Origin: Oscillospiraceae bacterium
Lineage (GTDB): Bacteria; Bacillota; Clostridia; Oscillospirales; Oscillospiraceae
Length of the DNA: 42,270 nt
Assembly (NCBI GenBank): GCA_024698225.1
Contig: JAILRK010000242.1
Location: 1-42,270 of the forward strand
Direction: 5' to 3'
Shown: piece after piece, positions 27,328 to 40,240 of the stretch
Layout of the letters: every line of letters begins with the position of its first letter
Numbering within the stretch: the stretch's first letter is position 1
Translations under genes and position numbers: made by a program
Notes under the pieces: model-generated
The model's database searches: none
The model's input: only the letters and a program-made list of their open reading frames with translations
Told to the model about the DNA's origin: nothing

Positions 27328-27348
27328 AACGAATGAGAACTGAATCAC

Positions 27349-27463
27349 CAGTCTTCGAGGCGGGGCGAAACTCCCCACCGGCGGTACAGCCCGCAAGCGG
27401 CAGACATGTCGCACGAATCGGTGAAATTCCGATGCCGACGGTAAAGTCCGGATGAGAGAAGAT
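27349..27463 (+). ncRNA. FMN riboswitch (RFN element)
   Basis: TCTTCGAGGCGGGGCGAAACTCCCCACCGGCGGTACAGCCCGC...CGGTGAAATTCCG.TGCCGACGGTAAAGTCCGGATGAGAGAAGA matches the RFN consensus; lies upstream of an ECF S-component. Confidence 0.95.
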
Positions 27464-27472
27464 GTGTATTGT

Positions 27473-27540
27473 CACGCTCTTTTGCGTCATGCACCCGAAG
27501 GCTTGTCTTTCGGTGCATTATCGTAAAGGAGTGTTTTTTT
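27473..27540 (+). terminator. riboswitch expression platform: terminator/RBS-sequestering hairpin
   Basis: Imperfect long stem (core ATGCACC...GGTGCAT; CTCTTTTGCG pairs with CGTAAAGGAG) followed by T7 just before the ATG. Confidence 0.6.
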
Positions 27541-27542
27541 CT

Positions 27543-28160
27543 ATGTCCTCAACCGCAGCCTATGCCAAACAGGCGGCGCGCACGCACCGCCTCGCCGTTG
27601 CCGGAATGCTTTCGGCGGTGGCCTTCGTCCTCATGTACATCGAGTTCCCGATTCCCGCGCTGATTCCCGCGTTCATCAAGCTGGACGTGTCCGACCTGCC
27701 GGAGCTGCTGGCGGCGTTCGCCCTTGGCCCCGTCTGGGGCGTGGTGGTGACGCTGTGCAAAAACGTGCTCTTCGCCATCCTGCACGGCACCTCCTCGAAC
27801 TACGTCGGCGAGCTGTTCAACTTCCTTGCGGGCAGCGTGTTTGCCTTCACCGCGGGCGTCATCTATCACCGCGGAAAAAGCCGCCGCAGCGCGCTGCTCG
27901 GCGCGGTGGTCGGCGCGGCGCTGATGGCGCTGGTCTCCGTGCCGCTGAACTACTTCCTCGTCTATCCCGCCTACGTCAAGGTCTACGGCATGCCGATGGA
28001 GGCAATCATCGGCATGTATCAGGCAATCAACCCCGGCGCGGACAACCTGATGAAGTGCCTGGTGCTGTTCAACGTGCCGTTCACCTTCTGCAAGGGCATG
28101 CTGGACGTGCTGCTGTGCTTCCTCGTCTACAAGCCGCTCTCCCCCATTCTGCACAAATAA
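27543..28160 (+). CDS. ribU: riboflavin ECF transporter S component
   Basis: MLSAVAFVLMYIEFPIP..PAFIKLDVSDLPELL.AFALGP, VGELFNF, FNVPFTFCKG; under an FMN riboswitch. Confidence 0.9.
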   Translation: MSSTAAYAKQAARTHRLAVAGMLSAVAFVLMYIEFPIPALIPAFIKLDVSDLPELLAAFALGPVWGVVVTLCKNVLFAILHGTSSNYVGELFNFLAGSVFAFTAGVIYHRGKSRRSALLGAVVGAALMALVSVPLNYFLVYPAYVKVYGMPMEAIIGMYQAINPGADNLMKCLVLFNVPFTFCKGMLDVLLCFLVYKPLSPILHK

Positions 28161-30131: not shown

Positions 30132-30587
30132 ATGCACTCAGACATTGCAACCCACAAAGCAGAGGAACTCAGCGGCGGCAACGCCTTCGCGGTCTACAAC
30201 CATCTCGAGGTCGAACACGTTGAGCAGGACTACGCCGTCTTCCGCCTCAACGTGCGCCCGGAGAGCAAAAACCCCTTCGGCTTTGTCCACGGCGGGCTGC
30301 TGGCGGGCATGGCGGACAACGCCGCAGGCTATGCCGCCCACAGCGACGGGCGCACCTACGTCACGCAGTCGAGCCACCTGAACTACCTGCACAACCAGGC
30401 GGAGGGCGTCATCCGCGCCGCCGGACGCGTGCTGCACCGCGGACGCACCATCTGCCTTGTGCGCGTGGACATCCTCGGCGAGGGCAGCACCCTGCTCGCC
30501 ACCGGCGAGGTCAGCTATTTCTGCGTTGACCCGGACGCACTCGAACGGCGCATGGAGCAGTCCGAGCAGACCGGCAAGGCGGTATAA
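30132..30587 (+). CDS. PaaI-family hotdog thioesterase
   Basis: NPFGFVHGGLLAGMADNAAG; AAGGAG RBS before ATG 30132. Confidence 0.9.
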   Translation: MHSDIATHKAEELSGGNAFAVYNHLEVEHVEQDYAVFRLNVRPESKNPFGFVHGGLLAGMADNAAGYAAHSDGRTYVTQSSHLNYLHNQAEGVIRAAGRVLHRGRTICLVRVDILGEGSTLLATGEVSYFCVDPDALERRMEQSEQTGKAV

Positions 30588-30601
30588 ACCGGACAGAGCG
30601 A

Positions 30602-30738
30602 ATCAAGCAGGAGGGGCACGTTGCGCCCCGTCCTCTCACACCACCACCGCGCGTACGGTTCCGTACACGGCGGTTCAACCGTATACGTGCAGAGACTCAT
30701 ACCGGTCAAGGATACTAATGTGCGCTCGCCGGGCGCAC
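30602..30738 (-). mobile_element. internally deleted class C (IIC) group II intron relic, 137 bp
   Basis: Minus strand: 5' GTGCGCCCGGC directly after a terminator hairpin; then an RT C-terminal remnant ISILDRYESLHVYG*; then domain V/VI TGAACCGCCGTGTACGGAACCGTACGCGCGGTGGTGGTGTGAGAGGACGGGG...CCCCTCCTGCTTGAT 3'. Confidence 0.85.
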
Positions 30739-30739
30739 G

Positions 30740-30781
30740 AAAGAGGGTGCAGAAAGCCTATCGGTTCTCTGCACCCTCTTT
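30740..30781. terminator. rho-independent terminator of the large surface-protein gene; intron target hairpin
   Basis: AAAGAGGGTGCAGA-N14-TCTGCACCCTCTTT. Confidence 0.85.
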
Positions 30782-30800
30782 GCGTGTTCTTCTGTTCTGC

Positions 30801-33800
30801 TTATTTGCAGAACCGCCAGAGCATCGTCGCAACGACCGCCCGGGTCGAGGCGTCGGACGGAGCAAGCAAGAGCTTGCCGTCCTTGTCGATGCCGTTCACG
30901 ATTCCGGAGCCGCACGCCCACTGCATTGCGCTCATCGCCCAACCGCTCACGCTGAACGCGTCGTCATAGCTGAGGATATTCGTATCCTCGCCGACGCTCA
31001 CGTCCATCTTCTTGTGCTGCGCGTAGCGATACAGGATGGCAGCGAGCTGTTCGCGGGTCACAGGGTCATTCGGGCCAAATCTGCCGTCCTCGTAGCCGTT
31101 GACGATACCCTCCGCGCTTGCCCAGCGGATTGCGGGACCGTACCACTGCTCGTTGTCTACGTCGGAGAACTCGCTCATGCCGACGTAGGCAGGGCTGCCT
31201 TCGAGCCTCCACAGCATCGTGGTGACCTGCGCGCGGGTGGTGGTGTCAGCGGGAGCGAACTTTCTGTCGCCCACGCCGTTCATCACGCCGTTTTCCAGCG
31301 CCCAATGTACGCCGTCGTGATACCATTCGGCCGCGTTCGCGTCGGTGAACTTGTCGATTGGGCAGCTCGCGTCCTTCGGGCAACCCTTCGCCAACTCTTC
31401 GTCGTACGCAATGACATAGTGAGAGAAGTGCGTTACGCTGAACACGACGTTCTTCCCGTCATAGCTCGACGGAACCTGCGCGTGTGTGCCATCGTCCGCA
31501 ACATACCACACAACGAGGCCCTTGCCGTCCTGACCGTCCTTAAGTGTGCAGGGGACGCTGAGCGTGGCAACGCCGCCCTTGAAGTCGCTGATGCGCGTGC
31601 CGTTGGACGTAATGCAGACGTCCACGACCTTCTGCACTTCCATTTCCTGCACGGTATTACGCTGTGCGTCGTTGAGACTGCTTTCGGAAACGACGTCCAG
31701 ATTGAGCCGGATATCCGTACTCTTCGCCGCGTCGATAATGGCGCTCTGCGCCGCCGCGTCGAACACGACGCTGCCGTCGGTCAGCGTGACCTGAAGGCTG
31801 CTGCCGCTTTCCTTGACCGCCTTGACGGTCTCGATGGGAATGACTACGGTCTTGATGTCCTTGGCGACGCCGCCGACGTCAATGGAGACCGTGTTCGTCG
31901 TTTCTGCACCGGCGGCAGCGTTGCTCTCCGTCACCTGCGCAAGCTGTGCGTCGGTCAACTTTGCGACCGTCACCGTCGTGCCACTGACGCTTGCCTTGAC
32001 GAGGATGGAGCCGGAGGCCGTGTCGCTCGTCACGGGAACGGTGACGCTGCTCGAGCTGCTGCCGCCGCTGCTTCGCGGCATCAGTTTGTTTGCCAGCGCG
32101 GAAAGGCTGACGATACCGTAACCGTAAGCGTTGTCATAGCCGGTTTCGCCCGCGTCCACGGCGGTCTGGCGCAGAAGCTCCTTGAATTCGTCCACGGTCA
32201 TGTCTTTGTTCCGCTGCTTGGCTGCCGCCGCCATCGCTGCCACAACGGGAGAAGCGTAGGATGTGCCGTCGGCGATCTTGCAGCGTCCCGAGAGAGACAG
32301 ACCGAGCAGAACAATATCGCCGCCGGGTGCGGTGACGAAGACCTTATCGTTCTTCGTGGAGCTGGTGCGCACGACACCGTTTGCTTCCACCGCGCCCACG
32401 CCGATGACACCCTCGCAGGCGGCGGGATAGACATACGCATCCTCCGTTGAGTCTGCCGTGCCCGCGTTGCCCGAGGCGGCGGTGATGATGACGTTTTTGG
32501 ACACGGCATAGGCAACCGCCTCGTTCAGCTCCTCCGTCTCCTTGACATCCATACTGGTGGTGATGACATCCGCGCCGTAAACATCCACGGCCTCGCGAAT
32601 GGCGCGGGCAACCAGCTTGCTGGACGCCCCGTCCGTATCCTTGTCGGGCGCTTTGGGAGAGATTTTCAGGGGAATGATCTCGACCCGATCCAGCAAGCCC
32701 GCCACGCCGAGCGCGTTTCCTGTTTTTGCGGCAAGGATGCCCGTAACGGCGGTACCGTGCCCGTTGTTGTCGATCAGTGCGCCAGCCGGCATTTCCTTGT
32801 CGTCGTCATAGTTATAACCGTCCAGAATGCGGCTGTAATCCAGATCGCCGTGCCGTCCCGTGACGCCGCTGTCCAGCACGGCGATTTTGATGCCCACGCC
32901 GCTGAGGCCGGAGCGTTTGAACGCCTCCGCGCCGATGAGCGCGAAGCTCTGCTGCTGGAGCTTGTAATAGGTGTCGTTATACGCGAGGCCTGTGGCGCGG
33001 ACGGGCTGCTCTTCAGTGATGGGTTGCGGCACACGGGAAACCAGTGCCACGCCGTACTGCTCCGCAGCCGCCTCGAGCGCGTCGCGCTTTGTCAGGCAGC
33101 CGATCGCGTAGGAACCAAGCTCCGCGAAGGCGGAGGCTGCCGCCCGCGCGGTTTCCTCGTCCGTAATTTCTTCAATCAAGGCGTCCACATGCGCGGCGGC
33201 GGAGCGCGAAAGCGCCTTTCGCGCCGCTTCCTTGATGCCCTCTGAGCTGTGGGTCGCTCCCGATACGGCGTCAACCTCCGCGGACTGCGCCTCCTTGATG
33301 GCACTGTGCAGGACGGAGGCGCTGTCGTAATAGGTAGCGGTATCCTTGCGATTGGTGCCCGTCACGGACGTGATTGCGCCGTCCGTAATCTCCACCGTCA
33401 CCGTCACGGAACCTGTTCCCGCATGGCCCGTGCCCTCGTCGGTATAGGTGCCGTCCGCCCATACCACATCCCCGTCGTCGGCGGTCAGGACGGGCTCCGT
33501 ATAGGCGGCGGAATAGAGGCCGGTGCAGAGGATGATACCGTCCACACCTCCGCCGTTGTTGTTCCACGCGGGACAACCTCCGCTTCCGTTGGATTCTCCA
33601 ACGGCAATCAGCTCACCGTCGCGGAGCGCCAGCGCGTTGATCCAGTCGCCCGCCGTCGTGCCGTAGTTCTCCGTCCAGACCAGTTGATCCTCCGCGTCGT
33701 ACTTGAGCAGAACGGCGTCCTCGCCGCCATAGCTGCCCCAGTCATAGCCCTCCGCGAGGCGGTCATCCTCGTGCATCATACCGGACTGGTTGGAAGCGAT

Positions 33801-35276
33801 GATGTACCCGCCGTCCGGCGTGGCGAGGATCGCCTCGGGTCGGCTGTCATTGTCGTTGATCGTGCCGAAGCTCGTCGCGTGGACCAGCTCGCCGTCGGCG
33901 CTGTAGTGTACGGCAAGCGTGTCCTTCACGCCCGTGACCTGCCAATTCTCATCGGTGTCGGCGTCGGCGGTGGACGTGCCGGTCACAGCCACGGAATCGT
34001 CGGTGAGCACGACGATGCCGCTGTATTCCGCCTTGATGTACTCCGCCGCGTCGGTGGGAACCACGCTTTGCGCCTCGCGTCCGGCGGAACGGTGCCACAA
34101 AAGCGAGCCGTCCGCGCCGTTCAGCTTGGCAATCACCGCGTTTTGCGCGTTCTTCGCAATGGCATCATAGCCGACGAGGTAGATATTGTCCTGACTGTCC
34201 ACCGCGATGTCCTCCAGCCGCTCGGACGGGCTGGAAATGTTGTTCGCGTTTTCGGAAACGCTGTAATTGTGAAGCGCCGTGTATTGCAGATTCCCATCCT
34301 TGTCAAATTTCACGACGATGCTGTCCGAGCCGCTGGACGCAACGCGGTTGGGAATCTCATCGTTCGTGCCGTCCTGCGGCTCCCAGAGCTGCGTGAGCGG
34401 CGCATAATTCACCCGATCCGTAGAGCTGGTGAGGTAACCGGACTTGCTGGCAGACCAGCCCGCCGCCACAAAGCCGCCATCGCTTGTTGCGGCGACGCCG
34501 TAGCCCTGGTCACCCGCTGTGCCGCCGATGCGGTAGTCCGTATAAACATCGGGATCGTTCGGGTCGATGACCAGCAGATACCAGCTCACGCCCTTGATGG
34601 TTTTGTCCTCCGAGTTGAAGGACTGCCTCCCCAACGCAACAATCCTGCCGTCGTTCAGCACGTCGATGCTCTCGAACACATCGACGCCGTCCGTCGCGTA
34701 TGCCTTGGCCCACTCCAGCTCATGGACGGCGTTGAACTTCATCAGGATCGCGTCGTTGTAGTTGGCGTTGCCGACGTGCTTCCATTCCGGCGAGTCGCTG
34801 TCGCCGAAGGAGTAGCCCATGGCGACAAAACCGCCATCCTTCGTGAATGCGACGCCGTGCAGCGCGTCCGTCTTCTCGCCGCCGTAGTTCTTTGAGCTTT
34901 GGAACACCGGCGCGGCATCCTCTGCCGACGCCGACGCCAGCGCCGATTTCACCGCTTCGCGAATGCCTTCGCAGCTGTGGGTCGCGCCGGAAACTGCGTC
35001 AACCTCCGCGGAATTGGCGGCAACGATGCTGTCCAGCATGGTTTTCGCCTTCTCCCAAAATACCTTTGTCTCCTTCTGATAGACGGTTTCAATCGCGGCA
35101 ATGCCTCCATTCTGAACCGTCACGCTCAGCTTGATGTCCCCATCATAGCCCTTGCCGACGCCGGTGTATGTCCCGTCCCGGTAGAATGCCGCGCGCACGG
35201 AAAACGGCAACATCCCCAACATCAGAACAATCGCCAGTGCTGTGGCAAAAAGGCGCTTTGTTATTTGCTTGTTCAT
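30801..35276 (-). CDS. 1491-aa cell-surface protein: signal peptide, FMN-bind, beta-propeller-like repeats, FMN-bind, S8 subtilase, Ig-like region, 3x SLH
   Basis: GAGGGAGG RBS before ATG 35276; two YxDGTYT...VDAVSGATHS domains; repeated W.K.YG..GGF...G units; triad VLDSG / NGHGT / GTSYASP; SLH FTDANAAEWY, FSDVDNEQWY, TREQLAAILYR, TRAVVATMLWRF. Confidence 0.88.
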   Translation of the reverse strand: MNKQITKRLFATALAIVLMLGMLPFSVRAAFYRDGTYTGVGKGYDGDIKLSVTVQNGGIAAIETVYQKETKVFWEKAKTMLDSIVAANSAEVDAVSGATHSCEGIREAVKSALASASAEDAAPVFQSSKNYGGEKTDALHGVAFTKDGGFVAMGYSFGDSDSPEWKHVGNANYNDAILMKFNAVHELEWAKAYATDGVDVFESIDVLNDGRIVALGRQSFNSEDKTIKGVSWYLLVIDPNDPDVYTDYRIGGTAGDQGYGVAATSDGGFVAAGWSASKSGYLTSSTDRVNYAPLTQLWEPQDGTNDEIPNRVASSGSDSIVVKFDKDGNLQYTALHNYSVSENANNISSPSERLEDIAVDSQDNIYLVGYDAIAKNAQNAVIAKLNGADGSLLWHRSAGREAQSVVPTDAAEYIKAEYSGIVVLTDDSVAVTGTSTADADTDENWQVTGVKDTLAVHYSADGELVHATSFGTINDNDSRPEAILATPDGGYIIASNQSGMMHEDDRLAEGYDWGSYGGEDAVLLKYDAEDQLVWTENYGTTAGDWINALALRDGELIAVGESNGSGGCPAWNNNGGGVDGIILCTGLYSAAYTEPVLTADDGDVVWADGTYTDEGTGHAGTGSVTVTVEITDGAITSVTGTNRKDTATYYDSASVLHSAIKEAQSAEVDAVSGATHSSEGIKEAARKALSRSAAAHVDALIEEITDEETARAAASAFAELGSYAIGCLTKRDALEAAAEQYGVALVSRVPQPITEEQPVRATGLAYNDTYYKLQQQSFALIGAEAFKRSGLSGVGIKIAVLDSGVTGRHGDLDYSRILDGYNYDDDKEMPAGALIDNNGHGTAVTGILAAKTGNALGVAGLLDRVEIIPLKISPKAPDKDTDGASSKLVARAIREAVDVYGADVITTSMDVKETEELNEAVAYAVSKNVIITAASGNAGTADSTEDAYVYPAACEGVIGVGAVEANGVVRTSSTKNDKVFVTAPGGDIVLLGLSLSGRCKIADGTSYASPVVAAMAAAAKQRNKDMTVDEFKELLRQTAVDAGETGYDNAYGYGIVSLSALANKLMPRSSGGSSSSSVTVPVTSDTASGSILVKASVSGTTVTVAKLTDAQLAQVTESNAAAGAETTNTVSIDVGGVAKDIKTVVIPIETVKAVKESGSSLQVTLTDGSVVFDAAAQSAIIDAAKSTDIRLNLDVVSESSLNDAQRNTVQEMEVQKVVDVCITSNGTRISDFKGGVATLSVPCTLKDGQDGKGLVVWYVADDGTHAQVPSSYDGKNVVFSVTHFSHYVIAYDEELAKGCPKDASCPIDKFTDANAAEWYHDGVHWALENGVMNGVGDRKFAPADTTTRAQVTTMLWRLEGSPAYVGMSEFSDVDNEQWYGPAIRWASAEGIVNGYEDGRFGPNDPVTREQLAAILYRYAQHKKMDVSVGEDTNILSYDDAFSVSGWAMSAMQWACGSGIVNGIDKDGKLLLAPSDASTRAVVATMLWRFCK

Positions 35277-35351
35277 AGATCCTCCCTCAAATTTTTTTAT
35301 TTGCACGACCACGAGGGTCGGACAAACCACAATCATGCTCCCGCCACGCCT

Positions 35352-35601
35352 TGTGAGCTCCGGCTAACAGCAGGCTGCTTTCCGGCAAAGCAACAGAAGC
35401 TCTGCGGCAGATTGTTAGTTTTTGCTAACAGCTAATCAGTAAAAAAAGGACTGTGAAAGCCCGGGTTCATCAAACACTTTGATATTTTTGGGTATGATAA
35501 CACAAGCTCCGGCAAAATGCAACACACAACTTGCCAGTCGCGACAATTTTTGTTAGCCGAAGGAAACTCTTGACAGCGCTCACGAGTTAGCATATACTAA
35601 C
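35352..35601. promoter_or_regulatory. divergent promoter region with four GTTAG-N6-CTAAC-type palindromes (DtxR/MntR-like operators)
   Basis: Sites at 35352-35369 TGTGAGctccggCTAACA, 35413-35430 TGTTAGtttttgCTAACA, 35552-35567 GTTAGccgaagGAAAC, 35586-35601 GTTAGcatataCTAAC; rightward TTGACA-17-TATACT (35570-35598); leftward TTGCAT-17-TATCAT (35522-35494). Confidence 0.7.
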
Positions 35602-35645
35602 CGCGATGAAATACAATATGGCACTTTGTAAGGATGGGAGGCGGC

Positions 35646-37175
35646 ATGAAGAAGCAGTTGATCCGCGCGCTGTTGTGCGCGCTGTTGCTTGGCGGGATAC
35701 TTGTCGGCAAGCCGTCGGCCCTCTCGGCGGAGCAGGTTGCCATGGACGGAGACTATACGTCCTCCGGCGAGGTAGATGTGGACGGGGGCTCCGGCTGGTC
35801 GTTTGACTGGTACACGTTTTCGCTGACGCTCAAGGTCTCCGGCGGCACGATCTCCTCCATCACGCAACAATTCACACAATTCCCCGACGACACCTACAGC
35901 GACGAGTGCCAAAGCAAAGCGCTTGCTGGACTGAGGGCGGAGCTGCTGGGAAAGCCTGCCACGGTAAGCGCTGTTGATTCCTATGCGGTTGACGCCGTCA
36001 GCGGCGCGACCTTTTCCTACCACGCCCTGCGCTCTGCCGTCCTCGAGGCGCTGGCAAATGCGCCGGAGGCGGCGAACGTAACGCGCCATACCGTGACCTA
36101 CGATCTGAACGGAGCGCCCGACGGAACGCTGACGGCGGAATATGCGGCGGGCGATCTTGTCGAGCCCATCGAACCCGTATGGAAGGACCATGTGTTCACG
36201 GGCTGGACGGGCGTTTCCCTGACGGACGGGAGCTTTCTCATGCCGGAACAGGACGTTACGCTGACGGCGCATTGGCTCAATACCGTTACCATTGGCGCGG
36301 GCGGCAGCAAGACCATCGTGCGGCGGGAGGGCGGCTATGCGCTGCGCGCGACGCTCGGCGGCGCGGAACTGCCACCTTCCGAGGACTGTCTGTGCCTTTG
36401 CGCGCTCTACGACGGTGCGGGCAGAGTGATTCTCGTCCGCTCCGCCGCCGTCACGGAGGGCAAGCCGTCATACGCCGATTTCGTGCTGGACGAGGTACAG
36501 ACCGGGTGGCGCGCCAAGGTCTTTCTGCTGCAGGAGGATGACGGTCTGCCGCTGGTGCGGTCTGCGGAGCTGCGCTTTGCCGATGCTTTCCCCGACGGGG
36601 TGTACTCCGGCAGCGCCCAATGCCTGTCCGACTATATCAACTATTTGGTCGATGTTGAAGTAACGGTGACGGACGGGGTCATCACCGGCCTCACGGATAA
36701 AACGCTGCGCACACCGATGTCAACGAGGGACAGGGAATGCTACGCGGCGGCGTGGGAGGATTTATATGGGCGTATCCTGTCCGGCAAGTATGCTGCGGAC
36801 GGCTTTGAAGCGGTAGACGCGGTCTCCGGCGCAACAATCTCCTCCAATGGGATCAACGCCGCCGTCTGCGACGCTGTGAGCGAGCAGCGCGTTCCCATGG
36901 AGCCGGATGATGCGGAGGTGTACGCCCCGGAGGGTATATCGCTCTACGCGCGCGCCTATCCCGTTGTCAAGGTCAAGGACGGAACAATCACTGACATCCG
37001 CGTCGTCCCCGCGCGTGACAGCGACGGAGAGGCGCTCTCGGCGTTTGCCGCGCAGATACGGGAGCAGCAGTCCGTCAATCTTCCCCTTCCTTCGCTCATT
37101 CAGGACGACGCCTACAGCGTGGCAAGCCTGATCGACCAGCTTTTATACGGAAAAGGGGTGCTGAACGATGGGTGA
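35646..37175 (+). CDS. secreted multi-FMN-bind (flavinylated) protein with InlB-B/Flg_new-type repeat
   Basis: GGAGG RBS, Sec signal ending ALSA; DGDYTS...VDAVSGATFS; TVTYDLNG...FTGW...MPEQDVTLTAHW; DGVYSG...VDAVSGATISS; degenerate third VKVKDGTITDI unit. Confidence 0.82.
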   Translation: MKKQLIRALLCALLLGGILVGKPSALSAEQVAMDGDYTSSGEVDVDGGSGWSFDWYTFSLTLKVSGGTISSITQQFTQFPDDTYSDECQSKALAGLRAELLGKPATVSAVDSYAVDAVSGATFSYHALRSAVLEALANAPEAANVTRHTVTYDLNGAPDGTLTAEYAAGDLVEPIEPVWKDHVFTGWTGVSLTDGSFLMPEQDVTLTAHWLNTVTIGAGGSKTIVRREGGYALRATLGGAELPPSEDCLCLCALYDGAGRVILVRSAAVTEGKPSYADFVLDEVQTGWRAKVFLLQEDDGLPLVRSAELRFADAFPDGVYSGSAQCLSDYINYLVDVEVTVTDGVITGLTDKTLRTPMSTRDRECYAAAWEDLYGRILSGKYAADGFEAVDAVSGATISSNGINAAVCDAVSEQRVPMEPDDAEVYAPEGISLYARAYPVVKVKDGTITDIRVVPARDSDGEALSAFAAQIREQQSVNLPLPSLIQDDAYSVASLIDQLLYGKGVLNDG

Positions 37176-38631
37176 AAAAACCATGACGAGGCGCGCATTT
37201 CTCCGCGACAGCGCCGCTCTGCTGCTGGGAACCGCCGCCGTCTGCGTATTCGAGAGGGCGCTTCCGCCTGACGCCGCGCTCGCCTTAGAAAACAGCGGCA
37301 CGGACATGAGCCTTTCCATCGTGCGCGACACCGACAAGTGTATCGCCTGCGGAAAGTGCGTGGAAATCTGCTCCGAGCGGCAGGGACTGAACATTCTGGA
37401 GCTGAGCAAACGGTCGGACGGCAAAACCGTTTCCTCTCTGAAAAACGCCTCATCACTGGCGGACAGCCGATGCATCGGCTGCGGGCAATGCGCGCGCCAC
37501 TGTCCCAGCGGCGCGATCTCGGTGCGGGACGGTCTGGGCTCGGTCAACGCAGCGCTGAACGACAGCCGCTACCGGGCGATTGTGTGGCAATTCGCCCCCT
37601 CCGCCCAGCATGTCGTCAGCGAGGAGTTCCATATGCTCGCGGGAACGGACGTATGCGGAAAGCTCGCCGCCGCCGTCCGCGTGGTCGATGAGAGAAGCAT
37701 GGCGGTCAGCACGGACTTCGGCGCGGACATCACCATCATGGAGGAGGCAACGGAACTGGTCAGCCGTCTACAGGAGGAAGCGTGGCAAAAGCCGTTGATG
37801 ACCTCCTGCTGTCCGGGATGGGTCAACTATGTCGAGCTGAACCATCCCGAGTTGATCCCGCATCTTTCGTCCTGCAAGTCGCCCATGGAAATGCTGGGCG
37901 CTTTGGTCAAGACGCAGATCCCGCAAAGGCTGGGCATTGCTGCCGAAGACATCTTCCATATCGCCGTCATGCCCTGCACAGCGAAGAAATACGAGCGCGC
38001 CCGCCCTGAGATGCTGACGGACGGCGTCCCCTCGGTGGACGCGGTGCTGACGGTGACGGAGTTCAAGAAGCTGCTTGAGCTCCACAATATCGACCTGTCA
38101 GCGTTAGAGGATGAGCCTTACAATGATATGTTTGCCGGAACCAGCGGCGCGGGGCGCATCTTCGGGGCTTCGGGCGGCGTCTGTGAGGCGGCGCTGCGCA
38201 CCGCGTATTACCTGCTGACCGGCAGCGAGCCGCCGCAGGTGGAGTTTATCGCGCTGCGCGGCAACGAGGACGTCAAAGAGTCCGAAATCACAATCGGAGA
38301 CCGCACCGTCCGTGTCTGCGTGGTCAACGGTATTGCAAACGTGAAGGGGATTGTGGAGGCGGTCAAGGCGGGAAGCTGCGCGTATGACTTCGTCGAGGTC
38401 ATGACGTGTCGGGGTGGTTGCTCCGGCGGCGGCGGAACGCCCGCGCTCTTCGGAGACGTCGGCGTCCGTCACAGAGGGCTGTACCGCTACGACAATAGCG
38501 CCTCCGTGCGCTCCAGCCACAACAATGCGACGCTGTCCAGACTGTATGAGGACTATCTCGGCTCGCCCTGCTCCGAGCTGGCTGAGGAACTGCTCCACAC
38601 CACCTACGATGAACACAGGGGGACGCTATGA
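37168..38631 (+). CDS. hydA: monomeric group A [FeFe]-hydrogenase with N-terminal Tat signal and 2x[4Fe-4S] domain
   Basis: TRRAFLR twin-arginine motif, h-region and ALA; CIACGKCVEIC, CIGCGQCARHCP; ADITIMEEATEL; L1 TSCCPGW, L2 MPCTAKKYE, L3 EVMTCRGGCSGGGG; fused small-subunit-like tail RSSHNN..LY..YLG.P.S..AEELLHTTY. Confidence 0.92.
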   Translation: MGEKTMTRRAFLRDSAALLLGTAAVCVFERALPPDAALALENSGTDMSLSIVRDTDKCIACGKCVEICSERQGLNILELSKRSDGKTVSSLKNASSLADSRCIGCGQCARHCPSGAISVRDGLGSVNAALNDSRYRAIVWQFAPSAQHVVSEEFHMLAGTDVCGKLAAAVRVVDERSMAVSTDFGADITIMEEATELVSRLQEEAWQKPLMTSCCPGWVNYVELNHPELIPHLSSCKSPMEMLGALVKTQIPQRLGIAAEDIFHIAVMPCTAKKYERARPEMLTDGVPSVDAVLTVTEFKKLLELHNIDLSALEDEPYNDMFAGTSGAGRIFGASGGVCEAALRTAYYLLTGSEPPQVEFIALRGNEDVKESEITIGDRTVRVCVVNGIANVKGIVEAVKAGSCAYDFVEVMTCRGGCSGGGGTPALFGDVGVRHRGLYRYDNSASVRSSHNNATLSRLYEDYLGSPCSELAEELLHTTYDEHRGTL

Positions 38632-38810
38632 AGATCGGACTGGGAGAGCTGCTGGTCGTATTTGCAGTGGCACTCGTTGTGATCGGGCCGGATAAACTGC
38701 CCGACTTCGCCCGCAAGTGCGGAAAATCGCTCGCACTGTTTCGAAAAGCCTATCGGGATGCGGCGGAGGAACTGACAGGCGAAGAGAGCGGGAAAGGAGA
38801 TGACGCTTGA
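38628..38810 (+). CDS. tatB: twin-arginine translocase TatA/TatB family subunit (TatB-like)
   Basis: MKIGLGELLVVFAVALVVIGPDKLP; 4-bp overlap with hydA; GP.KLP hinge is TatB-like. Confidence 0.78.
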   Translation: MKIGLGELLVVFAVALVVIGPDKLPDFARKCGKSLALFRKAYRDAAEELTGEESGKGDDA

Positions 38811-38989
38811 TGAGGATTGGAGCACCTGAACTGCTGCTGACGTTGCTGATTGTCGTGATTCTGTTCGGACCGAGCCAAATTCCGAAGCTGGGAAAGCTGT
38901 TCGGAACGGGTATCAAAGGCTTTCGGGATGGTCTGAGCGGAGGTGATTCAGAGGCTGGAACCAATGACGACACAGAAGAATGCAAGTAA
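38810..38989 (+). CDS. tatA: twin-arginine translocase subunit TatA
   Basis: MRIGAPELLLTLLIVVILFGPSQIPKLGKLFGTGIKGFR; FG hinge; TGATG coupling. Confidence 0.9.
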   Translation: MRIGAPELLLTLLIVVILFGPSQIPKLGKLFGTGIKGFRDGLSGGDSEAGTNDDTEECK

Positions 38990-39728
38990 CGCCGACGGGG
39001 AAATGAGCGTCGCCGCGCACCTGCGAGAGCTGCGGCGACGCCTTCTCACCTATCTCGGCGCGCTGGCGGTCTGTCTGCTCTTCGGGCTTCGCTATGCGCC
39101 GGAGCTGACGCGGCGGCTGCTGTCGCTCGGCGAAGCGTATTCCTACCGCTTTGTTTACCTCTCGCCGGAGGAGTTGCTGCTGGAATACCTCCGCATCAGT
39201 CTTGCCGCCTCGTTCTGTGTGACGCTGCCTGGATTGCTGTATGAGATCTGGATGTTTCTGCGTCCGGGGCTGAGGCGCGACGAACGGCTGGCGGTGCTGG
39301 TGGCGATGCTCTCTGGTACTCTTTGCGCGGCGCTGGGCGCGGCGTTTGCCTATCGAATCATGACGCCCTTCGTTCTGCGCTTTCTCTTTTCCCTGAGCGA
39401 CGGAATCGGCGTCGCATCCTCGGTGTCGGTACGGAGCTATCTTTCGTTCCTGCTCACGCAGCTCGCGGTCTTCGCGGCGGTGTTTGAGCTGCCGGTCATT
39501 CTGGCAATACTGACATGGTTCGGACTTGTCCGCGCGAAGACCCTGCGGCGCTTGCGCAAGCCAATCATCGTGCTGTGCTTTCTGCTCGCAGCGATCATCA
39601 CGCCGCCCGACCCCTTTTCGCAGATCATGGTCGCCGTGCCGCTGCTGCTGCTCTTTGAGCTGAGCATCGCGCTCTGCTCGCTGCTGGAAAAGCGTCACGG
39701 CAAAATGAAATCGAGCAGGAGAGGCTGA
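38964..39728 (+). CDS. tatC: twin-arginine translocase subunit TatC
   Basis: MSVAAHLRELRRRL, EIWMFLRPGL..E, FELPV, AAIITPPDPFSQ; start could be 39003. Confidence 0.93.
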   Translation: MTTQKNASNADGEMSVAAHLRELRRRLLTYLGALAVCLLFGLRYAPELTRRLLSLGEAYSYRFVYLSPEELLLEYLRISLAASFCVTLPGLLYEIWMFLRPGLRRDERLAVLVAMLSGTLCAALGAAFAYRIMTPFVLRFLFSLSDGIGVASSVSVRSYLSFLLTQLAVFAAVFELPVILAILTWFGLVRAKTLRRLRKPIIVLCFLLAAIITPPDPFSQIMVAVPLLLLFELSIALCSLLEKRHGKMKSSRRG

Positions 39729-39732
39729 GTAA

Positions 39733-39788
39733 GCCCCGTCCTCTCACACGTACCGTTCCGTACACGGCGGTTCAGCCGAATACGTGCA
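39733..39788 (-). mobile_element. second, more degraded group IIC intron domain V/VI fragment
   Basis: GCCCCGTCCTCTCACA-CGTACCGTTCCGTACACGGCGGTTCAGCCGAATACGTGCA is near-identical to 30625-30691 apart from an 11-bp gap and 3 substitutions; same strand; abuts a hairpin. Confidence 0.82.
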
Positions 39789-39822
39789 ACGACCATGGCG
39801 ATTTGCACCCGCCATGGTCGTT
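39788..39822. terminator. terminator hairpin
   Basis: AACGACCATGGCG-N9-CGCCATGGTCGTT between convergent tatC and DUF3783 genes. Confidence 0.8.
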
Positions 39823-39850
39823 TCCGTTTTGTCCGCCGGTTTTTCCATCC

Positions 39851-40240
39851 TCAGGGCTGCCGCTGCATCTGCTGCTTCATCAGCTCGTGCTCGCGCACGA
39901 CCTCCTGCATCAGGTCGCAGAGCGTCCAGTCCCGGTTGTGCTCCGTCAGCACCGCCTTATAGGGCACGGACACACCCGCGCGCCGCATGGCGGCAAGCAG
40001 GCGGTCAAGCTGACGCTCCCCGAGGCCGCAGAGCAGCATGAACGACTCCTGCGGCGGCGGCTCCGGCGCGGGCGCATCGTGCACGGCGGCGTTCGTGGAC
40101 ACCAGCCGCGCCACGCGCTCCCCCGCCTGCGCCTCGCCCACGGTCACGGTGAACAGCTTCTGCGCCAGCAGCACGCCGCGCAGTGCGCGCCCCGTCTCCG
40201 TGTCGCTGTCCAGATGATACAACAGCACCTTCGAGCGCAT
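39851..40240 (-). CDS. DUF3783 domain-containing protein
   Basis: FMLLCGL...QLDRLLAAMRRAGVSVPYKAVLTEHNRDW...L..E..REHELM; GGAGG RBS. Confidence 0.85.
   Translation of the reverse strand: MRSKVLLYHLDSDTETGRALRGVLLAQKLFTVTVGEAQAGERVARLVSTNAAVHDAPAPEPPPQESFMLLCGLGERQLDRLLAAMRRAGVSVPYKAVLTEHNRDWTLCDLMQEVVREHELMKQQMQRQP

Follow-up and report, generated by a model that had tools for sequence, protein, structure and literature searches.

Group A [FeFe]-hydrogenases work in both directions. The periplasmic HydAB of Desulfovibrio is exported and has cytochrome c3 as its partner; the type is defined by two subunits, a signal on the small subunit, and the cytochrome c3 partner. Membrane-associated [FeFe]-hydrogenases are reported from Desulfotomaculum in which a Firmicute catalytic subunit carries a Tat motif and is proposed to face outward (PMC3569383, PMC4149029); they form three-gene units that include a cytochrome b membrane subunit (PMC4149029). 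Meheust 2021 (PMC8238504) and Huang 2024 (PMC11334425) described FMN_bind proteins that are secreted, bear several [ST]GA[ST] sites and SLH anchors, are linked to apbE, and have proposed roles in iron assimilation; in these systems electrons arrive from NapH-, MsrQ-, PepSY-, DsbD-, NQR/RNF-like, or DUF4405 conduits, or from an unknown source. In Fe(III)-reducing Clostridium, flavinylated proteins of the ApbE-NosR module are proposed to hand electrons on to Fe(III) outside the cell (PMC13134045). Finally, EqbA of Streptococcus equi ICESe2 is a short DtxR-family repressor without an SH3-like domain, with a Cys linked to its Fe2+ response; it also responds to Zn2+ and Mn2+, and its operator has been proven by EMSA (PMC3672683).

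We analyzed a 42,270-nucleotide stretch of an Oscillospiraceae genome (contig JAILRK010000242.1, the window) that holds an [FeFe]-hydrogenase gene next to genes for FMN-site proteins and Tat components. The locus shares with Desulfovibrio HydAB and cytochrome c3 a group A H-cluster, two accessory [4Fe-4S] clusters, predicted Tat export, and a putative soluble outside partner. Unlike that system, a single self-signalled chain combines signal, large, and small domains in one ORF, the partner carries FMN sites with no cytochrome in the locus, and the operator is of an iron type rather than tied to sulfate respiration. The cytochrome b membrane subunit of the Desulfotomaculum units is present neither in the island nor beside the hydrogenase in other loci. 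No NapH-, MsrQ-, PepSY-, DsbD-, NQR/RNF-like, or DUF4405 gene turned up in the ORF scans of the window and of the loci of three other hosts (G1003, G1027, and G1365). The ApbE-NosR module differs in being dissimilatory, fed by NADH/quinone via a membrane protein, and without an exported hydrogenase. The EqbA regulon shares the operator core but controls a siderophore-like NRPS and importers and includes no hydrogenase. The flavin wiring does not fit the definition of any known system checked, while all of its parts have known folds.

The preliminary description of this DNA did not recognize the combination as described. Tat-signalled [FeFe]-hydrogenases had already been reported in Firmicutes, in Desulfotomaculum (PMC3569383, PMC4149029), and Tat export of such an enzyme is therefore not new in itself. 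For the flavin wiring, no description was found in the literature searched. The terms hydrogenase, hydrogen, and Tat do not occur in the main texts of PMC8238504 and PMC11334425, and the large gene-cluster table in supplement 1 of PMC8238504 may list such clusters unremarked.

Organization of the locus

A scan of the window recovered all of the ORFs that had been described, with matching domains. Two likely starts were revised, to 35276 (1491 aa) and 35646 (509 aa), each following a GGAGG site; the new lengths equal those of database entries P0214 and P0121, respectively. The genes lie in a 9.3-kb accessory island. In a sheep-gut contig from a relative the site is empty, with 30585 joined to 39875 and 47 letters in between, and GC3 is 0.76-0.79 for four island genes versus 0.83-0.92 for 12 other window genes. 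The features are as follows.

30586..39874, no strand: accessory island, whole unit, from the empty-site contig and GC3
30601..30696, minus strand: left copy of a ~95-bp direct repeat (repeat families D2, D5)
30740..30781, minus strand: terminator-like hairpin after the large gene (inverted repeat I13)
30801..35276, minus strand: 1491-aa secreted protein with FMN domain, beta-propeller, FMN domain, S8 subtilase, and SLH anchor; an optional part
35414..35429, no strand: operator-like GTTAG-N6-CTAAC palindrome, 138 bp upstream of the large gene, matching the EqbA operator (PMC3672683)
35570..35598, plus strand: sigma-70-type promoter of the partner-hydrogenase-tat operon (TTGACA, 17 bp, TATACT; 11/12)
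35586..35601, no strand: second GTTAG-N6-CTAAC palindrome, overlapping the -10 hexamer (motif scan)
35646..37175, plus strand: 509-aa secreted partner with FMN domain, InlB B-repeat, Ig-like domain, FMN domain, and C-terminal docking domain
37168..38631, plus strand: 487-aa single-chain group A [FeFe]-hydrogenase (Fe_hyd_lg_C, Fe_hyd_SSU, and two Fer4 motifs)
38628..38810, plus strand: TatA/B-family gene, TatB-like, overlapping the hydA stop (TatA_B_E)
38810..38989, plus strand: TatA/B-family gene, TatA-like (TatA_B_E)
38964..39728, plus strand: tatC, the sole copy found in the genome (TatC, TIGR00945)
39709..39793, minus strand: right copy of the direct repeat (repeat search)

The left repeat copy bears some resemblance to the 3' end of a group II intron; the repeats matched no Rfam intron model, at the gathering cut-off or at E up to 1. 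The sole Rfam match was an FMN riboswitch. This riboswitch and a nearby ECF transporter were considered as members of the unit and rejected because both lie beyond the empty-site junction. A bovine-gut contig carries the large gene, the partner, and hydA together.

All four DAVSGAT motifs are intact (34980-35000, 33252-33272, 35991-36011, and 36816-36836), and none of the 37 ORFs scanned in the window encodes a cytochrome, an NADH-binding subunit, ApbE, or HydEFG. The observation made in the preliminary description is thereby confirmed; its interpretation is supported in part.

The hydrogenase and its Tat genes

The hydrogenase scores 417.2 bits against the group A model TIGR02512 (cut-off 405.95) and matches PDB relatives at E 1e-80 to 1e-88. 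The model for bifurcating, NADH-dependent group A6 enzymes, NF040763, gave 509.6 against a cut-off of 765, with the match starting at profile position 135, and the island has no NuoF-like gene. The twin-arginine signal (37186-37203), both ferredoxin-type [4Fe-4S] motifs, and the three H-cluster motifs are intact. Among the 33 best full-length hydrogenase matches, which served as the set of relatives, the three H-cluster cysteine motifs are present in all 33 and the twin-arginine motif (S/T-R-R-x-F-hydrophobic, with h-region) is kept in 32; Pfam TAT_signal gave a weak match, on the G1132 relative. From this conserved signal, the island hydrogenase is likely to be exported by Tat.

TatC is well matched by TIGR00945 (172.9 versus 132.7). 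The two TatA_B_E genes score below their NCBIfam cut-offs (48.6 versus 56.5, and 51 versus 53.9), so the tatB and tatA labels are best guesses. Among 49 genus genomes, tatC was found in five. In all four of the other loci read, tat genes lie next to the hydrogenase (tatA alone was seen in G1132), and the gene arrangement suggests that the Tat genes of the island are dedicated to the hydrogenase.

The system is rare, with four additional hydrogenase hosts in three wider samples. Among carriers, the P0031 and P0032 clusters are common, at 24 and 425 members. A pattern scan of species genomes gave 79 hydrogenase loci, all at 45% identity or less, and the host itself encodes two further group A hydrogenases. 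Our hydrogenase tree was a quick one that contained no Desulfovibrio or Desulfotomaculum sequence; one entry in it, P0050, appears chimeric.

The FMN partner and the predicted complex

The partner has two FMN sites and a third, C-terminal domain without the motif; in this docking domain, at about residues 425-505, PEGISLY (36927-36947) is invariant. Like ApbE-flavinylated multi-FMN proteins, it has several FMN_bind domains, more than one of them with [ST]GA[ST], and a signal peptide (judged by eye, as for all FMN proteins here), and its genome encodes apbE. On the strength of the motifs and of apbE, covalent flavinylation of the partner by ApbE is likely. The closest solved structure to the FMN domain is SaFMN3 (Z 11.7, rmsd 1.9, 89 aligned); with the whole partner model, the Foldseek list was filled by Ig folds.

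Structure prediction supports the proposed contact between HydA and the FMN protein. The pair reached an ipSAE of 0.93, against 0.00 for the best control, a mark that 116 of 157 solved complexes and two of 215 mismatched pairs reached, these counts being only roughly valid here. Contacts agreed between runs by at least 98%, and partner pLDDT was at least 91. The partner is predicted to dock at the distal [4Fe-4S] cluster of the hydrogenase, through an interface that consists of PEGISLY on the partner side and, in the hydrogenase, of residues 59-66 and 113-114, which surround the first ferredoxin motif, with a modeled partner-binding loop encoded at 38446-38475. The hydrogenase loop at residues 427-428 (LF) is conserved in 24 of 30 aligned rows. 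It is missing from hydrogenases of the G1003/G1027 type, whose loci do not have this partner and carry another FMN protein in its place.

The genes also co-occur elsewhere, as had been anticipated, with partner, hydrogenase, and tat as neighbors in other genomes. Of the six partner accessions listed, five are numbered directly next to a hydrogenase accession, and in the G1365 locus, which was read directly and is the same record as one of these pairs, the partner adjoins the hydrogenase. The 7.2-kb contig of G1132 has no FMN gene. The partner had no match in 400 family genomes and 400 order genomes, and among 201 genomes of the order of G1365, only G1365 matched. A metagenome scan with the partner alignment gave 13 weak loci, none a true partner; the generic FMN motif swamped it.

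Maturation of the hydrogenase

The preliminary description had proposed looking for apbE and hydEFG elsewhere in the genome and had named their absence as a refutation. In this genome (G000, 89% complete) apbE was found outside the window; hydE, hydF, and hydG were not found. In other hosts, apbE lies 5 kb from hydA (G1003) or within the hydA gene run (G1365). Since hydG occurs in only two of 49 genus genomes, and in one of the 17 near-complete ones, gaps in the assembly are no safe excuse for the missing maturases. Because of both observations, this copy of the hydrogenase may stay unmatured.

The hydrogenase in this host might never be matured at all. It would then be a passenger, newly acquired or in decay, or an apo-protein whose only task is the relay or storage of iron-sulfur clusters. 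This reading, prompted by the missing HydEFG, we consider somewhat unlikely. It would fit the lack of a close relative of the island hydrogenase in 36 genus genomes, and the state of G021 (same genus), where tatC is 86% identical and a transposase-like ORF at the end of the contig interrupts the tat gene upstream of it. Against it, the reading frames and motifs are intact here and retained in relatives 82-88% identical, and hydG is present in three of the four other hydrogenase hosts (G1003, G1027, and G1365). The genome also lacks feoB, which all 48 other genus genomes have, and HydA homologues persist in each of the 36 genus relatives searched, though hydG is lacking. Hydrogenase-bearing clostridia without hydG are a reported puzzle (PMC9431212). 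Non-maturation concerns this copy and is compatible with our preferred explanation for the family, H2-driven iron reduction.

The operator-like palindrome

The 370-bp intergenic region holds two perfect GTTAG-N6-CTAAC sites, the second over the -10 of a promoter that was the one found by a scan in which 0.4 were expected. The sequence matches the EMSA-proven operator of EqbA (PMC3672683). A palindrome stands upstream of the hydrogenase in all five loci read, perfect in G1003, G1027, and G1365 and with one mismatch in G1132, these loci being homologous and hence not independent of one another. It also precedes feoA/feoB in G1003, G012, and G1365, a DUF2325-DUF3793-flavodoxin group, and apbE; some sites stand before genes of no evident iron role. 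In G000 the motif scored 9 and one letter-permuted control 7, and the perfect counts of two in G1132 and two in G012 are barely above those of the reversed control (two and one). A single short protein of the DtxR family is encoded in the host, and its metal-site motif contains a Cys. Given an EqbA-type core that lies at this promoter and also before iron-uptake genes, and given such a repressor, the palindrome is a candidate iron operator by motif match. The regulon is not covered in PMC13390469.

The host might offer another outlet for electrons from H2. They could pass from the partner FMN to RnfG or to an FMN-FMN-cytochrome c552 (NrfA-like) protein and conserve energy, which would be the flavin counterpart of the pairing of periplasmic hydrogenase and cytochrome c3 in Desulfovibrio. 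The genome encodes an Rnf operon and, together with ResB/CcsA and a Fer4_5 protein, an FMN-FMN-Cytochrom_C552 fusion, and cytochromes and flavinylation have been described as interchangeable (PMC8238504). Neither host locus (L131, L132), however, has the palindrome, even allowing one mismatch, and no respiratory gene lies beside the hydrogenase in five loci read, where the recurring neighbors are apbE, nusG-II, a Gx transporter, and SLH proteins. We consider such an energy-conserving chain unlikely.

The large FMN/subtilase protein

In the S8 domain of the large protein, Asp and His are invariant in 25 of 25 rows and Ser is present in at least 90%; the fold is of the subtilisin type, as shown by its match to thermitase (Z 35.3, rmsd 2.1, 268 aligned). 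The protease was considered a core part and rejected, contrary to the preliminary description, because the hydrogenase-bearing genomes G1003, G1027, and G1365 have no match to it.

The wiring could instead serve as a general wall reductant that scavenges O2 or oxidants, or that reduces disulfides so that the subtilase digests proteins; the operator would then answer to the loss of Fe2+ from the repressor under oxidative stress. SaFMN3 in its reduced form reacts with O2 (PMC10339131), the FMN and S8 domains remain part of one protein in 25 homologues, and the model of the large protein packs them with the propeller (pTM 0.74). Both the reductant role and this account of the operator are improbable in our view, given that three hydrogenase hosts lack the protease and that the genes sharing the palindrome are those of metal importers and flavodoxin, not peroxide defenses.

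Proposed mechanism

We favor H2-driven extracellular Fe(III) reduction for iron uptake, with a probability of roughly 55% on the sequence and model evidence. A short DtxR-family repressor loaded with Fe2+ would keep the operon off. Under iron shortage, the hydrogenase would be matured in the cytoplasm and exported folded via Tat, while the partner would leave via Sec and receive FMN from ApbE. Electrons would then run from H2 through the H-cluster, the two [4Fe-4S] clusters, and the partner FMN to other wall FMN proteins and Fe(III), and Fe(II) would be taken up by FeoB or by further importers under the same control. Such a chain could do without a membrane electron conduit, because the H2 fuel would diffuse in from the community. 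SaFMN3 has a midpoint of -184 mV (PMC10339131), and we calculate an H2 potential of -355 to -266 mV at 1e-2 to 1e-5 atm, so that H2 oxidation by such an FMN would be downhill. Points against this scheme include the maturases and feoB that were not found in this genome, and the response of EqbA to Zn2+ and Mn2+ as well. It would also be strange for a cell short of iron to make an enzyme containing 14 irons, and our analysis identified no Fe(III) acceptor.

The same potentials bear on the reverse direction, in which H2 would be evolved from FMN carriers as an outside electron sink at times when the cell lowers its use of iron-rich routes in the cytoplasm. Catalysis by group A enzymes can be reversed, the regulon includes a flavodoxin, and the host holds two other group A hydrogenases. 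FMN domains near -184 mV would, however, be too positive at gut H2 levels, no linked membrane conduit would bring the electrons, and consuming outside protons would presumably cost proton motive force; we regard H2 evolution as very unlikely.

The preliminary description had raised, as one possible use, that the reductant frees Fe(III) from proteins cut by the fused subtilase. The iron role gains from the EqbA-type operator upstream; the release step does not stand as a general one, and with the protease outside the core it would be at most a local add-on. Where present, the fusion would loosen protein-bound iron, the weakest step of iron reduction as proposed here.

From the iron-type operator, the exported hydrogenase, and the docking partner together, it seems likely that some gut bacteria use ambient H2 for the reduction and capture of extracellular iron. 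More tentatively, the locus may represent a class of hydrogenase for nutrition rather than energy in gut Clostridia, in which community H2 drives a membrane-independent, all-flavin wall ferric reductase that is protease-fused in some hosts. The proposal would supply flavinylated wall proteins with an electron source that needs no membrane conduit, a gap named in PMC8238504, and the single-chain, self-signalled 487-aa hydrogenase with its small predicted docking partner would be a simple system for work on export and bio-electrodes. If hosts without hydEFG prove active, an unknown route to the H-cluster would be exposed. An iron-uptake role for a hydrogenase, if true, would link interspecies H2 to competition for iron, and H2 would become a currency of that competition in the gut and rumen.

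Gene content and boundaries of the island

The preliminary description of a divergent locus, with an FMN/S8/SLH gene on one side and partner, hydA and tat genes on the other, was borne out by Pfam and NCBIfam matches and by intact motifs. The large gene matches two FMN_bind domains, Peptidase_S8 and SLH, and the partner two FMN_bind domains. The hydA product scores above the TIGR02512 cut-off as a group A [FeFe]-hydrogenase; its twin-arginine motif is intact, as are both ferredoxin motifs and all three H-cluster motifs. The island is completed by tatC and two TatA/B genes, the ends of the plus-strand genes overlap, and all four DAVSGAT motifs are intact.

Features of the island (30586-39874)
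30601-30696 and 39709-39793, direct repeats of ~95 bp flanking the island
30801-35276, minus strand, FMN/propeller/FMN/S8 subtilase/SLH protein (the protease), probable start codon at 35276
35646-37175, plus strand, secreted two-FMN-site protein (the partner), probable start codon at 35646
37168-38631, plus strand, hydA

A contig from a sheep-gut run fuses position 30585 to 39875 with 47 letters in between, and thus in a relative the flanking genes occur without these 9.3 kb. The large gene, partner and hydA are bridged by a 3934-base contig from bovine gut (34165-38075), and a second contig runs from hydA to tatC, so the gene order does not stem from misassembly. GC3 is 0.76-0.79 in the island genes versus 0.83-0.92 in 12 other genes of the window. 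No close hydrogenase relative was found in 36 genomes of the genus (best 43% identity), and searches of 400 genomes from the family and 400 from the order gave no partner. The flanking repeats, which we take to resemble group II intron 3' ends, gave no Rfam match confirming that identity; they could be a vehicle for gain or loss of the island. Further copies lie on contigs C222, C187 and C10 of the host genome (G000), and their summed depth is high in gut runs. Outside the island by 2.4 kb, an FMN riboswitch (27347-27467; Rfam, 102 bits) precedes an ECF S-component (27462-28160) that is likely a riboflavin transporter.

The hydrogenase family and its Tat signal

The best 33 hydrogenase matches are 470-521 residues long, with 46-88% identity over 96-100% of the query. 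None of the 33 has lost any of the three H-cluster motifs, and 32 carry RRxF[LIV] (30 by pattern, two by eye on printed ends); the exception, P0012, begins downstream of that position. In a quick tree, one starred branch holds 25 of 27 Tat-bearing rows and one probable chimera, the remaining two lie beside cytoplasmic enzymes of ~585 residues, and the host's two other hydrogenases are far from all Tat rows. The host has one tatC; within the genus, 5 of 49 genomes have the gene. A crude scan of the host genome for Tat-like starts returned this hydrogenase and one permease-like protein.

More distant Tat-signalled [FeFe]-hydrogenases (P0102, P0117, P0033, P0248) lack the docking loop; one of them, P0102, stands for a common cluster of 39 members, one on 209 contigs. 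Other tat operons of the genus are preceded by Tat-signalled proteins of ~700 residues with a GVSGAT site (L185:8099-10237, L186:2121-4211), which, read by eye, are probably flavinylated fumarate-reductase-like enzymes. Tat-signalled [FeFe]-hydrogenases with cytochrome b occur in Desulfotomaculum genomes, according to PMC3569383 and PMC4149029.

The partner protein and its predicted docking

All 47 partner homologues contain FMN_bind, and none of 37 aligned rows departs from the last FMN threonine or from PEGISLY. The C-terminal 83 residues have only 9 matches (E <= 1e-10) among 1.84 billion representatives. For five of six listed partners the accession is consecutive with that of a hydrogenase, these pairs coming from Oscillibacter, Ca. 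Ornithomonoglobus and one further bacterium; several further pairs have longest contigs of equal size, a hint only. The modelled FMN domain resembles domain 2 of the solved protein SaFMN3 (Z 11.7, rmsd 1.9, 89 aligned), alongside an InlB B-repeat and an Ig-like domain.

Structure prediction of HydA with the FMN protein, as proposed earlier, favoured a complex. Partner residues 316-513 co-folded with the hydrogenase at ipSAE 0.93 (best control 0.00), with contact agreement of at least 98% between runs and partner pLDDT of at least 91. Among solved complexes 116 of 157 attain this mark, as do 2 of 215 mismatched pairs, a calibration roughly applicable here. The model supports binding, with predicted contacts from PEGISLY and the last partner helix to hydrogenase residues 59-66, 113-114 and 427-436, the first two of which presumably surround the distal [4Fe-4S] cluster. 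Residues 427-428 (LF) occur in 24 of 30 aligned rows; the six without them include hydrogenases of the G1003 and G1027 type, whose loci lack this partner. This counts as a single lineage-level change, not as many.

Other host genomes

Further hosts of the hydrogenase were G1003 and G1027 (2 of 251 genomes sampled) and G1365 and G1132 (2 of 398, G000 not counted). In G1365 a single run comprises a FeoB-associated/HMA gene, nusG-II, apbE, a 1578-residue SLH protein, partner, hydA, tatA and tatC. In G1003 and G1027 a gene for a dockerin-FMN protein is divergent to hydA, and tatAC, nusG-II and a Gx transporter adjoin; G1003 adds an SLH protein and apbE. These three loci and the consecutive accessions bear out the expected co-occurrence of Tat-signal HydA, FMN protein and tat genes. 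The tatA-hydA pair of G1132 is flanked by a transposase and an AAA gene, and no FMN gene was found on that contig. The host's own apbE, anticipated elsewhere in the genome, lies on a different contig with nusG-II and Gx, divergent from an SLH gene.

The propeller-FMN-S8 core of the protease has 25 homologues with varied anchors, and its S8 catalytic triad is intact. The model shows a subtilisin fold and a beta-propeller nearest CylK (Z 40.5, rmsd 2.6, 375 aligned). Three homologues have a longest contig equal in size to that of a hydrogenase or partner (94158, 25832, 26478). The propeller-FMN part had no match in G1003, G1027, G1365 or G021 (a genome of the host's genus) and only weak matches in G1132; the protease is an optional component. 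P0238 and P0240 are RnfD/NqrB-domain proteins in which FMN_bind stretches number up to 13.

An operator-like palindrome

GTTAG-N6-CTAAC occurs without mismatch at two places in the intergenic region, and one of these copies overlaps the -10 of a promoter that scores 11 of 12. The host genome has 9 perfect copies versus 0.8 expected from base composition, and the same half-sites with other spacers (0 to 15) total 2. The next best of 30 letter permutations scored 7, so the location of the sites carries more weight than their number. Upstream of the hydrogenase unit, G1003, G1027 and G1365 carry perfect sites; the site in G1132 has one mismatch. Genome counts against a reversed control were 14/0 in G1003, 6/0 in G1027, 5/2 in G1365, 2/2 in G1132 and 2/1 in G012, a further genome compared. 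The palindrome precedes feoA/feoB in G1003, G012 and G1365, and also DUF2325-DUF3793-flavodoxin, ZIP and HMA genes, ABC/ECF importers and apbE; some copies precede genes without an evident metal role. That the hydrogenase supplies a general wall reductant is an unlikely reading.

The core is the centre of the palindrome bound by EqbA, a DtxR-like repressor of Streptococcus equi responding to Fe2+, Zn2+ and Mn2+ (PMC3672683). The single host DtxR-family protein (124 residues) carries the Cys tied there to the Fe2+ response, its position matched by eye.

Hydrogenase electrons might instead feed a respiratory chain, which we consider improbable; the palindrome is missing from the host's Rnf and FMN-cytochrome c552 loci. 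L131 (G000 C30, 6529-8703) encodes a 724-residue RnfG-like protein that combines two FMN sites with a fused Cytochrom_C552 (NrfA-like) domain and is a candidate flavinylated nitrite reductase. Genes for ResB, CcsA and a Fer4_5 membrane protein come next.

At L187 (G021 C94), an 86% identical tatC and two perfect palindromes accompany an SLH protein and apbE-nusG-II-Gx, and at the contig end a transposase-like ORF interrupts the tat gene upstream. G021, which is 75% complete, yielded no close hydrogenase. Large SLH proteins that match PBP-Tp47 weakly (L135:7120-9921, L143:8868-13604) sit between the operator and apbE or the partner, and their DAVS[SR]AT motifs are possible non-canonical flavinylation sites. 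At L148 (G000 C248:4693-10966) the palindrome precedes an ABC transporter pair and a Trep_Strep/CbiQ ECF module, likely a metal or siderophore importer.

Proposed mechanism and maturation

We favour, at a probability of roughly 0.55, H2-driven reduction of Fe(III). An Fe2+-loaded repressor would hold the unit off; matured hydrogenase would leave by Tat, and its partners by Sec for flavinylation by ApbE. H2 would donate electrons that reach Fe(III) by way of the clusters and FMNs, and the resulting Fe(II) would be imported. The calculated H2 potential at 1e-2 to 1e-5 atm is -355 to -266 mV, and PMC10339131 gives -184 mV for SaFMN3. An H2-evolving electron sink outside the cell seems the least probable role.

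The maturases hydE, hydF and hydG, expected elsewhere in the genome, were not found in G000, the main weakness of the iron-reduction reading. An assembly gap is possible, since the G000 assembly, at 89% completeness, is missing feoB as well, a gene present in 48 of 48 relatives. In the genus, hydG occurs in 2 of 49 genomes and 1 of 17 near-complete ones, and HydA homologues in 36 of 36 relatives searched; either those enzymes stay unmatured or the genus matures them by a different route. hydG is present in G1003, G1027 and G1365, and was not found in G1132 (73% complete). There is some chance, the smaller one, that the G000 copy is unmatured.

Two flavinylation surveys (PMC8238504, PMC11334425) connect flavinylation to iron assimilation, and their main text makes no mention of hydrogenase or Tat; PMC13134045, PMC9431212 and PMC13390469 were also consulted. 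Like the preliminary description, which did not recognise the combination, we found no report, in a search mostly of papers open without subscription, that links a hydrogenase to ApbE substrates or puts one in an iron regulon. The unit is genuine and rare, is kept in several clostridial lineages, and fits none of the systems against which it was tested. The wiring of hydrogenase to flavoproteins is well supported, and we strongly infer a probable role in iron.
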